Source: Chrysomallon squamiferum (lineage: Eukaryota; Animalia; Mollusca). From it: DNA of 64,000 bases. The position numbers and the translations under genes are program-made. Under the pieces are notes generated by a model. The model saw only the letters and a list, made by a program, of their open reading frames with translations, had not been told where the DNA came from and ran no database searches. The stretch spans positions 33,418,001 to 33,482,000 of the forward strand of contig CM022672.1 of the NCBI GenBank assembly GCA_012295275.1, given 5' to 3'. Shown here one piece after another: positions 1,104 to 64,000 of this stretch. The stretch's first letter is position 1; each line of letters opens with the position of its first letter.

Positions 1104-3897
1104 TCATAGTAATTCTCCCGTCCAGCAGTCACGTGACGTATCGTCAGCCTTCACCAGCAGAACTTTGCAACCGTCTGCTTTGACGATGCATCCGTCTGGA
1201 GGTTGAATTACTCCCGCACTGATACCATATCTGTGTACAACGACAATAACAACAGCACAAAAAACAACAACAACAACAACAATAATAATAATAATAATAA
1301 TAATCATAATAAGAACAATAATGACGATGATGGTGATAATAGTAGTAGTAGTAGTAGTAGTAGTAGAAGTAGTAGTAGTAATGGTGATGGCAGTAGTGTT
1401 AGTAATATGTACGCGCACACACACAGACACACACACATACACGGGTTTTGCAGTTATGAAAATTGAAAAGTAGCTTCACTTTCAACTGGTTTATAAAAAG
1501 TAAAAAAAAAATGTTTCAGTGGTCACGTTTCATATGAAGAGGATAACGAATGGAGGCTGTTTTTTTTTTTTGTTTTTTGTTTTCCAGAAGATGTTGCCGT
1601 CTGATGGAGGGTGTGTCATTATGATGGGAGTGGTCCATTGGGCACGTGAGGACACCACAGGTCATCGTTAACGAAAGGTTAAGGGAAAACGGTTACATCG
1701 ACATTCTGCTTCCTTTGATTTTTCTGACCCAGCCACGTGATATCATTTATCAGCATGACAGTGCCAAAGCCCATACAGCCAGAATCGTAGACATCTTCGT
1801 TAGTGTAGCAACGTCAACGTGGTGTAATCATTGCCTGCTTAACAGAGATGTCGCAAGGAAAACACCAGTGGGATGTCATTACTCGCCGTGTGCGACAACA
1901 TCCTCAGGCGTCAACTTGTATTTTACACAGGCTTTGTTGCAGGGGTTTGTGGGTTTTTTAAATTATCATCATCAATAAAGTCATTATCATTATTATTATC
2001 ATCCTCATCATCATTGTTGTCGTCATCATCATCATAACAACAGGTATCATCAGTGCCATCATCATTATTATTATTATTATTATTATTATTATTATTATTA
2101 TTATGATATAAATTCCTTTTAAAAGCAATATGCTGTAACTAATGCAAAAGAACCTGCCTAGTAAAACTGTAAAAAATAGTAAATAAATAAATAAATAAAT
2201 AAATAATAATAATAATAATAATAATAATAATAATAATAATAATAATAATAATAATAATAATAATAGCAACAATGATAACAATAATAATAATAATAATAAT
2301 AATCATGATAAGAATCATCATCATGACGTCATCATCGTAATCATCATAATCTTCGTTGTTTTGATCATCGTTAGCTTTAGATTGTCTTTAGACATTTAAA
2401 ATGATTTTATTTGTGTGACCTATGCAGGACAGTACATACCCGCAACATGAAAGTTCCTTATCTGAACAGTGACACTGTAAACATTTATTCTCGAATTTAA
2501 CAGACTCTCCAGGTGACATCACAACACCGTCAAACTGGCAGTACGGTTTCATCTGTCCGTCATCTACAACAACAGCAATAGTTTAGTAAATGTCCAGTTT
2601 AACTGCTCTCTCATATGTGACTGAAACTATGTTAATCTTTGCTCCCTAAGCACATATTTAATCTTTTTTCTTTCTTATCGCGTCCTAGATATAACCAACA
2701 GCATTTGTTTATGTGTGTCTGCATGTTTGACTTTCCGTGTGTTGTACGTGTGTGATGCTGAGGGATATATATACATATATACATACATATATATATATAT
2801 TCACAATTTAGGCAAACCCACACAAACAACACCGTCAAACTGGCAGTACGGTTTAATATGTCCGTCACCTACAACAACAGCAATAGTTTAGTAAATATCC
2901 AATTTAACTATACTCTCATATTATGATAATGTGACTGAAACTATGTTAATCTTTGCTCGCTAAGAACAAATTTAATCTTTTTTCTTTCTTATCGCGTCCT
3001 AGATACAAGTGACAGCATTTGTGTGTGTTTGTGTGTGTGTATGTGTGAGTTTGACTGTCTGTGTGATATATCTATACATATATATATATATATATATATA
3101 CACATATCACCTCTGCCTCAAAATAACACACACACAGATATATACATATATATACATATATATATGTATGTGTATATATATATATATATGTAAGTATGTC
3201 TGTATGTGTGTGTGTGTGTGTGTGTGTGTGTTTTTGCCTAAACCGTGAGTAAATCGAGCCGATAATTTTTACGTCTAATAAACAAATATAGATTCACCGT
3301 TTTAGCATCAGTAAACGTATACAAACAGCACTTTGTAGTAAATGTTCAACCTTCTGGTTTCTGCCATTTTGAAAAGAGGTAACATGAAACAAATTAAATA
3401 AAGACCCCTTTTTCTGTCATGTTGTAATAAAAGTTTGGTCCTGTTTTTAAAGCTCAGTAAAATAACGAAAGAAAAAAAAAAAAAAAAAAAAAAAAAAAAC
3501 AATGAAAAAAAAAAAAAAAAAAAAAAAAAAAACACGTGACATCTCATTATTTAATCCTTCATCATTCTTCTCGGTGTCCTCTTTCTACCTGTCAGTCAGG
3601 TTTTAATGTCACATTCATAAAATTCCTTAGTTTTAACTAGATACTTACTTTACAAAGAAAAGAAAAAGCTACCTTGGAATATATATAAATATTAATTAAT
3701 TGACGAAAACGAAGAAGGTAAGCTATATTAATAATAACATATGTTTCTAATAAACACATCCAGTTATCTCGGTTTGAATGCCAAACGACAGAAATGATGA
3801 ACATACCTGTGCTGTTGTACTTTAGCTCCCTACTCAGACAGTAAGAGTCTGAGGTACAAAGAAACGCAGACAAAGTTAGGACAGCGAAAACCAGCAT
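1104..3897 (-). CDS. MSMB: beta-microseminoprotein-like secreted protein, copy A (intact, 3 coding exons, 113 aa)
   Basis: Exons 3897-3807 (donor GTATGT), 2563-2440 (acceptor ttgtag, donor GTATGT) and 1230-1104 (acceptor acacag) splice in frame: MLVFAVLTLSAFLCTSDS|YCLSRELKYNSTDDGQMKPYCQFDGVVMSPGESVKFENKCLQCHCSDKELSCCGYGISAGVIQPPDGCIVKADGCKVLLVKADDTSRDCWTGELL*. It has a hydrophobic signal peptide and 10 mature Cys in the PSP94 pattern C..C..CxxCxC-x6-CC..C..C..C. AATAAA lies about 45 nt after the stop. The symbol indicates family membership, not orthology. Confidence 0.88.
1510..1945 (+). mobile_element. decayed Tc1/mariner transposase fragment in intron 2 of copy A
   Basis: Translates to RTPQVIVNERLRENGYIDILLP...IIYQHDSAKAHTARIV and, in a shifted frame, QWDVITRRVRQHPQ...TQALLQ. 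These match the Tc1 DDE motifs (FQQDNAxPHTAR; EHxWDxxxRRVR). It is frameshifted. Confidence 0.8.
2826..2868 (-). pseudogene. partial duplicate of the 5' half of MSP exon 2 with an intact acceptor, inside intron 1 of copy A
   Basis: gttgtag|GT GAC GGA CAT ATT AAA CCG TAC TGC CAG TTT GAC GGT GTT, followed by unrelated sequence and a TGA. About 180 bp of flanking intron is duplicated with it. Confidence 0.8.
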
Positions 3898-6071
3898 GTT
3901 TGCTTTTCTCACTCGATGAATTTATGACCGTCGAACTTACTTAACTTAGCAACGACAACAAAAACAACCAAGCGTCTTGAAAGCTACGAAGTAAGTAGTC
4001 AGGCAGGTATTAAAACAAACGTAAGTAGTTTTAGGCTGGTGGAAAGAAAACGAAAAATAATTTATTTGACTGATTTGAAATAAACACAAAGTAACAGCCA
4101 GCTTCAAATTATCATAATTCTTATTGATGAAAGTATATCTGGTAAGGACGTAAATACAGACTGGCGTAAAATCCTGTCATTTACTTTTCAGATTACGTTT
4201 AGCAGCTCATGTATGGAACTGAGTTTATTGTTTTGTTACAAAAGAAACCTCCTGCTGTGACGAAACTTTACAATGCTGACTCGTACGAGTGTATTATACG
4301 TGTGCGGCGGCTTTGTACGTTCACTGGTAACACATCGCTCTTTACAAAATTAATGTCTTAGTTAAAGTCTAAATGTTTCGCTACACACGTGTGTCAGCTT
4401 AAACCTTTAAAAGACGCAGAGAAGCAAACACATAAATATCACCGTTTTTTCTTTTTCATCCTCAAAACGATTAAACATTATGAAACGAGTACTTGTTTTA
4501 ATCAGTTAAATCAGGCAAACGAAATTGAAAACATAAAAAAATATATCAAATAAAAAAATAAGAATAATAATTAAAAAATTCAAAGATGTCTATAAATAAC
4601 GAACGGAAAATACGAAAAATAAAGACGGACCTCGAAGATGAAATATATAATAATATTCAATATAAAAAAAAAAGGTAAAAGAATAAAGCAGAAAAAAGTA
4701 TGAAAAAAGAAAAAAGAAATAAAAGAAAGAAAATAACAATTGTTATAGTAGTATTTGTAGTCGTATTAGTATACTATTTCTACTGCAACAACTAGTAGGT
4801 AGTAATACGAAACAATAACAATTTAAAAATAAAATAAAACTAGCTTACATGTAAAGTTCTTTTAAAGTTTCTCATCGGGTGACCTGCTTTCTATATTTTG
4901 ATTTATCTGTGTCACCACACTTACTTCTAATTATGACATCTGGCAAACCGGGACATACTTGAGAGGCCAGACGAAGTTTAGGATGACTCATTAAGGTTAG
5001 CTCGCTCTGAGATATTCTTGTCAAAAAATTAACTGTGCATCATATAATGTTCCACAGAGTCACACATTTTCTGAAGTTAATGAAAGAAAAACAACAGAAA
5101 AAATCAGTACATATTATGAAAGCACTGATTTAATATTTTGATCATGGTTCACTCCTCGCACATTCGTTTCATGCAGAGTTCACAACTCTCTTCATGATGC
5201 AACATGACTTTTTTTTCGTTAGTATAGTTATAAATACGCTGACACAATTTTGTTTTTTAATTAATTATTGTTATGTTAGTGTTTTTTTTTTCATTATTTA
5301 AGGACTCGTTTGTGCATAGGGCGTATACTACCAATGAATAACACAGAGTCTGCCATCAATTGTGCAACCAGACAAAGACAGTCTACTTTCTTTTGCCAAG
5401 AAAAATACGTGACAAAGAACTTTCTCTTTTCTAAGAAACCAAGGAAGCTCACGTATCCATAAAAGGCAGTAAACTGCTTGAGATAAAATTAAATCTAAAG
5501 CAGAAACCTCTAACATCATCTACGCTGAGCGAAACAAAATTACGAGAGTGAGTAAATATGTGGAAAGTTAAATCTACTGGATGTTGATTAACAGTAAGGT
5601 AAGTTTTTAAAAATGTATACGGACTGGCAAACGTATTTTATTTGTAATTAAGAAAAACTAAATCAATCAATAAATAATAAAAAAAGCCAACAAACAACTA
5701 AATAAATAAATACAATGAAATTATACTACTACTACTACTACTACTATTACTAATAATAATAAGAATAAGAAGAAGAAGAAGAAGAAGAAGAAGAAGAAAT
5801 ATTTGTTTATATGTAGTATGTATTTGGTTTTATGACAAGAATTTAAAATATAGTACATTTAAAAGTTATCGCAGCATTCAGATCTTGAACACTTTTTAGA
5901 TAATGGAATAGGCACACGAAAACATACTTGAACTCTTTTATGATATTATGCAGAGAGAGAGAGAGAGAGAGAGAGAGAGAGAGAGAGAGAGAGAGAGAGA
6001 GAGAGAGAGAGAGAGAGAGAGAGAGAGAGAGAGAGAGATTTCGAAATCATTAAAATATAATTACTGTACAG

Positions 6072-63501: not shown

Positions 63502-64000
63502 CTACAACAACAGCAATAATTTAGTAAATGTCCAGTTTAACTACACTCTCATATTATGATAATATGACTGAAACTATGTTAATCTTTGCTCCCTAAGAAC
63601 ATATTTAATCTTTTTTCTTTCTTATCGCGTCCTAGATACAAGTGACAGCATGTGTGTGTGTGTGTGTGTGTTTGACTGTCTCTGTGTTGTACGTGTTTGT
63701 TGCTGAGGGATATATATATATATATACACACACATACATATAGATATATATCTTTTTTACTACCCACACACACATACATTTATATAAATTGCCTAAATTG
63801 TTAATAAAACGAGCCGATAACCTTTACGAATAATAAACAAATAAAAACATTACTTTTTAACAATAAACAAATACAATCAACATTGGTTTCTTTTTTTTTT
63901 AACAATAATAAACAAATGTAGATTCACTTTCTTTTAACATCAGTAAACATATACAAACAGCACCTTTTAGTAAACGTTCAACCTTATCGTTTCTGCCCTT

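Follow-up and report, generated by a model that had tools for sequence, protein, structure and literature searches.

In vertebrates, beta-microseminoprotein (MSMB/PSP94) genes lie in tandem, with copies particular to each lineage (14 genes in opossum, 7 in lizard), and MSMB-like genes are known from bivalves, gastropods and cephalopods (available text of PMC3268785). The habu carries five SSP genes in an array that includes an inversion and a pseudogene (PMC6609765, available text). A tandem array of 11 Cys-conserved PSP94-like genes has been described in Apostichopus japonicus (available part of PMC5638244); like the locus analysed here it is an invertebrate array, and the likeness is one of description, the animal being an echinoderm in which the genes are induced more than 10,000-fold in regenerating gut. 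Loligo beta-MSP belongs to the same family and is likewise compared by description, not by sequence. Members of the family are small secreted proteins, and it is the first strand of PSP94 that makes the contact with CAP proteins (PMC8857485, available text).

The window (the whole stretch of 64,000 nucleotides that was analysed) is read here, with a probability of about 0.6, as holding a rapidly rearranging MSMB-family cluster, likely that of a gastropod; its intact members would be secreted proteins with two domains and five disulfides, which probably act in body secretions by binding partner proteins.

Gene content and turnover of the cluster

Four intact three-exon GT–AG models, resting on predicted splicing, are free of stops. 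Three are A-type and lie on the minus strand: g1 (113 aa; 1104..3897; exons 3807–3897, 2440–2563 and 1104–1230), g2 (113 aa; 8951..10707; exons 10617–10707, 9703–9826 and 8951–9077) and g4 (112 aa; 44631..46169; exons 46079–46169, 45179–45299 and 44631–44757). The fourth, g3 (110 aa), is a chimera. Exons 2 (63381–63501) and 3 (62766–62892) of a further A-type gene, g5, occupy 62766..63501 on the minus strand, with exon 1 beyond 64000. The N-terminus of g1–g4 is hydrophobic, the best 9-residue Kyte–Doolittle mean being 2.7–3.7 against 1.1–1.4 elsewhere, and their signal peptides were judged from hydropathy alone; given cleavage after residue 18, the mature chain has 92–95 aa (family norm about 90–95 aa). 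Each has ten Cys downstream of residue 19, and g1–g3 have an eleventh within the predicted signal. All four intact genes have AATAAA 46 nt 3′ of the stop; at B-type exon 2 the splice donor, GTTATT, is a weak one. Since the 5′ flank of g2 and g4 matches that of g1 over only about 95 nt, some copies may have no working promoter. Small three-exon genes of this kind are easily missed in annotation, because protein searches gave no close relative.

Five copies are broken. The B-type pseudogene p38 (37370..38913, minus strand; exons 38829–38913, 38096–38216 and 37370–37490) has a single stop in exon 3, and the degenerate B-type p52 (51460..52701, minus strand) has a 5′ flank without a start codon and damaged exons 2 and 3. 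Two are D-type: D-a (6395..7260, minus strand), with an open exon 1 at 7170–7260, a degenerate exon 2 remnant at about 6395–6500 and no exon 3 found in the window, and D-b (36249..37140, plus strand), with an open exon 1 at 36249–36339 and an exon 2 remnant containing a stop at about 37040–37140. The fifth is the start of a B-type exon 2 (58561..58624, minus strand), truncated by an N gap and lacking a detectable exon 1 in an upstream search. Ten exons are orphan or partial. A B-type exon 3 (6072..6192, plus strand) and an A-type exon 3 (30916..31042, minus strand) keep open frames; within g1 intron 1 part of A exon 2 is present as a local duplicate (2826..2872, minus strand), and a partial D-type exon 1 (28963..29008, minus strand) has similar partial copies at 44088–44143 and 62209–62264. 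Four C-type exon 3 copies on the plus strand, each in a 2.3–2.5 kb tandem unit, complete the set: copy 1 (12641..12990), in which an internal tandem repeat of 65 bp disrupts the exon, copy 2 (14923..15260), and copies 3 and 4, starting at 48147 and 50463 (48147..50810).

The initial annotation had listed four intact signal-peptide, ten-Cys proteins of 110–113 aa, a fifth gene leaving the window, about ten orphan exons and at least three subfamilies on both strands, and this inventory holds, with four subfamilies (A–D) now distinguished on the two strands; A and B are only about 44% identical in exon 2. It had also counted three pseudogenes: broken copies do exist, and the number is five. The mixture of intact, broken and orphan copies from four subfamilies, together with kb-scale duplications and inversions, agrees with the birth-and-death evolution proposed there. 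The cluster would have grown by segmental duplication, often cutting introns, with orphan exons as most of the products.

Two 200-N gaps divide the window, one of them at 58361–58560. Neither these gaps within the cluster nor an embedded sacsin-like gene was recognised in the initial annotation. The 3′ part of that gene (15898..20836, plus strand) comprises a 1427-codon open frame from the N gap and a HEPN exon at 20519–20836. The frame begins at the first gap and the N-terminal 1,900–2,900 residues of its relatives are missing, so the join there is doubtful. Duplicated blocks across the gaps differ by 1.4% (g4/g5) and 2.7% (g2/g4), microsatellites excluded, and one or two copies may be haplotype duplicates of the assembly, g5 against g4 being a candidate. 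No gap separates g1 from g2, or g3 from g4, so three or more of the intact genes are separate loci.

It is unlikely, though a reading of some weight, that neutral churn, in a region prone to duplication and rich in microsatellites, accounts for most of the cluster, with one or two working genes, the rest by-products and some copy number unpurged haplotype. Such churn would suit a window of which 67% lies within duplicated blocks and 21% is short tandem repeat, with 15 broken or orphan copies against 4–5 intact genes; the closeness of the g4 and g5 blocks on opposite sides of an N gap, the doubtful sacsin join and a mature pN/pS indistinguishable from 1 point the same way. Against it stand the distinct loci, the many sequence variants of g4 (100–186 contigs over 1.9 kb, in runs from three studies) and the conservation of Cys and signal, by which the A copies taken together depart from neutrality. 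Among these copies, none of 51 minimum changes falls at the ten Cys or creates a stop, where 5.5 would be expected under neutrality (P about 0.002), and the signal peptide is conserved (Fisher p 0.01–0.02); judged by these comparisons, the A-type copies are under purifying selection. The mature exon 1 segment, the would-be strand 1, changes fastest (pN 0.19–0.39 against 0.03–0.10 in exons 2–3), and pS is likewise high in it. For the mature region pN exceeds pS, without reaching significance as positive selection (p 0.23 when pooled, and p 0.40 and 0.10 with intron 1 as the reference).

The chimeric gene g3

The gene g3 (33026..34516, plus strand) consists of subfamily B exons 1 and 2 (33026–33110 and 33720–33840) and a subfamily A exon 3 (34390–34516), joined at the boundary between the N- and C-terminal domains. 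The B/A junction lies in intron 2 at 34140..34155 (about 34147, plus strand), where it borders a microsatellite-like tract and shows microhomology over a few bases. The chimeric nature of this gene had been overlooked in the initial annotation. The N-terminal domain would come from exons 1–2 and the C-terminal one from exon 3, and a cut in intron 2 would fuse the N-domain of one subfamily in frame with the C-domain of another, as in g3; such fusion across subfamilies is possible because intron positions and phases are common to them.

Sequence in a public DNA run spans the junction. Contig depth, which does not equate to copy number, is 216 for the g3 junction against 26 for the B parent form in run X6, and 86 against 23 in run X1; for runs X2 and X4, none of the 24 pieces inspected, of 63, bridges it, and lack of cover there is uninformative. 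It has been considered whether the locus is an exon-shuffling repertoire, in which conserved intron phases let diverged N- and C-domains come together in novel functional proteins, with the g3 hybrid spread in the species and perhaps amplified, as a combinatorial secreted recognition set for a snail of a lineage with symbiotic vent species; this idea is speculative and distinctly unlikely. A loosely matched literature search, with subscription journals outside its coverage, found neither a gastropod MSMB cluster nor a chimeric MSMB gene, nor an inter-subfamily domain swap in vertebrate MSMB systems.

Function and host lineage

A partner-binding or defence function, argued from better-known relatives, is tentative, with a chance slightly short of even. 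Binding via the first strand, as in PSP94 and snake SSP-2, would be to CAP/CRISP-type proteins or to the surfaces of microbes, and in mucus or reproductive fluids it would serve defence or modulation. The MSMB family is unmentioned in the four files searched of the vent-snail proteome supplements (PMC11871041). The initial annotation had offered both a ligand-binding repertoire and a reproductive pheromone code, and the ligand-binding repertoire is the better half of that proposal.

The other half, according to which the copies are a reproductive pheromone or gamete-recognition code like the beta-MSP of squid egg capsules, is improbable. Squid beta-MSP is a contact pheromone (PMC3268785, available text, and PMC4500399, a secondary source), a function documented in squid only; family members are up-regulated in starfish testis (PMC9759900) and, in a marine snail that matures abnormally, in the brain (PMC10036341), and the N-terminal segment of the cluster proteins varies fast. 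Nothing in the window ties the genes to reproduction, however, and positive selection is not significant. Published tandem arrays, invertebrate and vertebrate, have other roles, namely gut regeneration (PMC5638244) and toxin binding (PMC6609765), as described in the available text of these papers; the best-documented invertebrate array, that induced in regenerating gut, is reported in the same part of PMC5638244 as undetected in embryos and larvae. The host, moreover, is likely a gastropod and not a squid. The nearest named relatives of the sacsin gene are gastropod (Gigantopelta, 53%) and no cephalopod name appears, in both cases among the best 120 of 278 matches; the sacsin tree is a quick version with long branches and without a cephalopod row. 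As these relatives are gastropod, near Gigantopelta, the squid pheromone analogy is distant.

Family assignment and comparison with known systems

Judged from sequence, the cluster proteins almost certainly belong to the MSMB/PSP94 family. The Cys spacing of the models is 14-18/18-19/2/1/5-6/0/14/6/13, and that of chicken MSMB3, counted from Table 1 of PMC8167871, is 9/17/2/1/6/0/13/8/13. All four intact models have C-x2-C-x-C-x6-CC followed by three C-terminal Cys, with x5 before CC in g4 and g5. Pfam scans took single exons as queries. The best match of B exon 2 was PSP94 (PF05825), with E-values of 0.0055 and 0.014 and scores of 17.7 and 16.4 bits (gathering cut-off 22 bits); no Pfam match came from exon 2 of g2 or g4, or from any of the first and third exons queried in these single-exon scans.

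A profile of exon 2 searched against 1.84 billion sequences gave seven matches, including the Lingula anatina beta-microseminoprotein-like protein XP_013382441.1 (E = 3.9e-6). Exon 3, absent from the profile query, is 41% identical to this protein, and the spliced models score 64–75 bits against it (E from 1e-12 down to 6e-16 at a database size of 1.84 billion sequences). With Cys held fixed, none of 1000 shuffles reached the observed score for any of the five models. The Lingula protein itself scores 23.5 bits on PSP94, above the 22-bit cut-off, and matches human PSP94 (PDB 3ix0; E = 4.8e-6). Among PDB sequences the exon-2 profile had no significant match (SSP-2 at E = 5.1); a word-index search with the exon-2 alignment gave 57 candidates, none of which scored, and one with the Lingula protein returned, of seven candidates, only that protein. 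The top three ESM Atlas clusters for B exon 2 are beta-microseminoprotein at 0.81–0.86, a lead only, below the 0.9 line. A fold was modelled for the Lingula stand-in alone, at low confidence (pLDDT 56); with this model the top three Foldseek matches are MSMB-family (best E = 9.3e-4), and VIA gave MSMB at Z 5.5 (rmsd 7.6 over 78 residues) and tick CirpT1 at Z 4.9, counted as tied. By analogy, we infer that the intact members would be secreted and have a two-domain, five-disulfide fold.

Single-VWC (SVWC) proteins have eight Cys. That the cluster proteins are SVWC or fibronectin-I-like is very improbable: g1 A-type exon 2 weakly matches VWC and SVWC (PF15430) and not PSP94 (E about 0.009, 16.6–16.8 bits, below cut-offs of 27 and 27.6, in one of six single-exon queries), four of the seven exon-2 profile matches are VWC/pacifastin repeat proteins and CirpT1 follows MSMB closely in both stand-in fold searches, but ten Cys in MSMB spacing with an adjacent CC pair, and full-length scores of 64–75 bits against the Lingula PSP94 protein compared with at most 29 bits for the VWC-repeat matches, largely refute this identity. 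With the shuffles, these results uphold the earlier preference for PSP94/MSMB over SVWC.

The best single-domain match, the Lingula protein, shares a signal peptide, ten Cys and similarity across both domains with the cluster models, and differs in a first inter-Cys loop of 24 residues against 14–18. Vertebrate MSMB/PSP94, MSMP, USM and snake SSPs (PF05825; PDB 3ix0, 6rwc, 6imf) are alike in ten-Cys pattern and spacing. The cluster genes have three coding exons, as has vertebrate MSMP (PMC3268785, available text), and in all models intron 2 lies one codon past the CC pair, the domain boundary of chicken MSMB3 being two residues after CC (PMC8167871, available text). The available text of the latter paper describes vertebrate MSMBs as non-glycosylated and chicken MSMB3 as cationic and antibacterial, whereas all three A-type copies keep an N-x-T sequon at residue 28 and the cluster proteins are acidic (D+E 13–14, K+R 7–10). 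On which domain sets partner specificity, the literature examined addresses only the PSP94 first strand; g3 is a natural domain-swap experiment which, set against its A and B parents, would test this. The cluster itself is ordinary, one more lineage-specific array in a family known for arrays, and the domain swap in g3 is a new detail relative to known MSMB arrays.

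Gene inventory and duplicated blocks

The window has a G+C content of 31%, two 200-N gaps (15698–15897 and 58361–58560) and about 21% short tandem repeat. Six-frame and BLAST scans of the window revealed three kinds of exon, each in multiple copies; GT–AG joining with phase-1 and phase-2 introns yields four open genes, with spliced models of 113 (g1), 113 (g2), 110 (g3) and 112 (g4) aa. A fifth gene, g5, has exons 2–3 at 62766–63501, and its exon 1 lies beyond the window. Each of the four models possesses a hydrophobic N-terminal stretch, ten cysteines C-terminal to residue 19 and an AATAAA 46 nt 3′ of the stop codon. 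A profile of the gene models recovered additional decayed exons in the window, which contains five broken copies (B-type pseudogenes p38 and p52, D-type pseudogenes D-a and D-b, and a B exon 2 truncated at a gap), along with ten orphan or partial exons, representing four subfamilies (A–D) on both strands. The hidden cluster of spliced beta-microseminoprotein-like genes proposed in the initial annotation is real; its description was correct and its count of broken copies was slightly low.

Duplicated blocks, direct and inverted, cover 67% of the window. Block pairs spanning the gaps diverge, repeats excluded, by 1.4% (g4/g5) and 2.7% (g2/g4), and g5 could represent the other haplotype of g4. 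For g2 and g4, paralogy is favoured by 15 differing residues of 113, a 5.4% difference in intron 1 and the lack of colinearity between their 3′ flanks. The 5′ flanks of g1 and of g2/g4 are unrelated past about 95 nt. The g4 region is covered by three of the four public sequencing runs (the fourth is labelled as another organism); contigs in runs of three studies, one run possibly being the assembly's own source, carry many variants there, consistent with a multi-copy family. However the duplicates are read, three or more of the intact genes occupy separate loci. A reading of the array as neutral churn, its copy number partly inflated by the assembly, is compatible with the g4/g5 blocks but rather unlikely given these separate loci and the pattern of changes among A-type copies described below.

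An AT-rich non-coding block of several kb occurs four times in both orientations (23000–29100, 39500–44300, 52990–57600 and 59150–62400; 8–23% divergence) and may represent a degraded mobile element or an earlier unit of duplication. A 204-codon frame within it (54775–55389) has no Pfam match. C-type exon 3 is found on the forward strand at 12679–12939 and 14949–15209, with copies near 48190–48450 and 50500–50770. Its frame is disrupted by a four-fold 65-bp internal tandem repeat, and the broken exon was afterwards duplicated, giving four copies in 2.3–2.5 kb units; no matching exons 1–2 were found in the window.

The cluster encloses the 3′ third of a sacsin-like gene (15898–20836, forward strand), with a 1427-codon frame (15898–20181) and a HEPN exon downstream. 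Among 120 listed of 278 matches, the best named relatives belong to the gastropod Gigantopelta aegis (53%) and then abalones (32–36%), with no cephalopod names. In a quick tree of 21 rows without cephalopods, the gene is nested within Gigantopelta paralogs (SH-aLRT 98–99), and the host is probably a gastropod belonging to this lineage. Since the frame starts exactly at the first gap and is 1,900–2,900 residues shorter than its relatives, this gap conceals several kb or is a misjoin; either the 5′ part lies within it or the left contig is misplaced.

Variation among copies and the chimeric gene

Selection was assessed on every full A-type exon copy in the window. None of the 51 minimum changes falls at the ten cysteines or creates a stop, where random placement would give 5.5 (P about 0.002), and the signal peptide is conserved (p 0.01–0.02). 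For the mature protein, each of the four pairs compared has a pN above its pS, though not significantly; mature exon 1 changes fastest (pN 0.19–0.39 versus 0.03–0.10 in exons 2–3). As PSP94 binds CAP proteins via its first strand (PMC8857485), this variation fits diversification of partner binding, unproven with only about seven synonymous sites.

All three A genes retain an N-x-T sequon despite the fast change of mature exon 1. It lies at residue 28, on the reverse strand (3807–3820, 10617–10630 and 46079–46092), among highly variable neighbours; PMC8167871 describes vertebrate MSMBs as non-glycosylated. A short motif 40–80 nt 5′ of the start codon is common to the A and D subfamilies (upstream regions 3898–3995, 10708–10805, 46170–46265, 7261–7310 and 36200–36248); it could be an initiator, or the splice acceptor of a non-coding exon that escaped the scans.

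Gene g3 (33026–34516, forward strand) is chimeric. Its exons 1–2 differ from p38 at 10 of 204 nt and its exon 3 lies 1–6 nt from A copies. A and B exons 2 share only about 44% protein identity. Within intron 2, B-like sequence gives way to A-like sequence at about 34147, where there are a few bases of microhomology. One contig of run X6 covers 34106–34187, with 41 nt per side, and bridges the junction under the strict rule; a contig of run X1, from a different study, has 24 and 41 nt and falls short of it. No bridging piece was present among those listed for runs X2 and X4, and loose ends show both parental continuations. The junction thus exists as DNA beyond the assembly text, in one of four runs by the strict rule, and we infer that the short junction contigs belong to whole g3-like genes. 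As intron 2 separates the two domains, the predicted g3 product carries an N-domain of B type and a C-domain of A type; the domain-swapped gene is the cluster's one feature worth following up.

In both B-type copies (33841–34009, forward; 37933–38095, reverse), no stop interrupts the exon-2 frame over the first 55 or so codons of intron 2, which are hydrophobic and follow a weak donor, GTTATT. If the intron were retained, the protein would consist of the N-domain alone and possibly a membrane tail; the open frame may merely be T-rich sequence without stops.

Proposed mechanism and function

The region most likely undergoes duplication and inversion of kb-scale pieces whose ends are often intronic. 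The majority of products would be orphan exons. Whole copies would persist under purifying selection on the scaffold, their surface residues drifting or diversifying, and common intron phases would now and then allow in-frame fusion of halves from different subfamilies. The gene products, predicted to be secreted, may well bind microbes or partner proteins in secretions, judging from family precedent: CAP binding, pH-dependent antifungal activity (PMC5198042) and the haemocyte response of challenged clams, in which a family member is down-regulated (PMC4234419). A pheromone code, also proposed initially, is improbable: it builds on an analogy with squid, a cephalopod, whereas the embedded sacsin groups with gastropod Gigantopelta. 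The squid pheromone role is confirmed by secondary accounts (PMC3268785, PMC4500399).

Family assignment and known arrays

Single exons are too short for the Pfam cut-off: three of six single-exon queries had no match, PSP94 was the best match of B exon 2 (E 0.0055 and 0.014) and g1 exon 2 matched VWC/SVWC (E about 0.009). A profile of six exon-2 sequences, searched against 1.84 billion proteins, gave seven matches, namely four VWC/pacifastin repeat proteins, a cytochrome, an amphioxus PSP94-domain protein and the beta-microseminoprotein-like Lingula protein XP_013382441.1. The latter exceeds the Pfam PSP94 cut-off and matches human PSP94 (E 4.8e-6). Exon 3, outside the profile query, shows a 41% match to it over 39 residues, and the four spliced models score 64–75 bits against it, above 1000 of 1000 Cys-fixed shuffles, versus at most 31 bits against any other profile match. 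With the Lingula protein as a stand-in (a weak model, pLDDT 56), structures of the MSMB family take the first three places in Foldseek, and in VIA-align MSMB3 (Z 5.5) ties with tick CirpT1 (Z 4.9). By sequence, the window genes belong to the MSMB/PSP94 family, and an SVWC identity, suggested by the g1 exon-2 match, is very improbable in view of the spliced-model scores.

Our literature search, with loose matching and coverage excluding subscription journals and most supplements, found no gastropod MSMB array or MSMB domain swap. MSMB-like genes are known in bivalves, gastropods and cephalopods (PMC3268785). The cysteine spacing of the models agrees with chicken MSMB3, and their intron 2 lies where the N- and C-domains of that protein are described as meeting (PMC8167871). 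Tandem MSMB arrays are already published for other animals, including opossum (14 genes) and lizard (7) (PMC3268785), habu snake (five genes, a pseudogene and an inversion; PMC6609765) and sea cucumber (11 genes; PMC5638244), to which the window adds another cluster.
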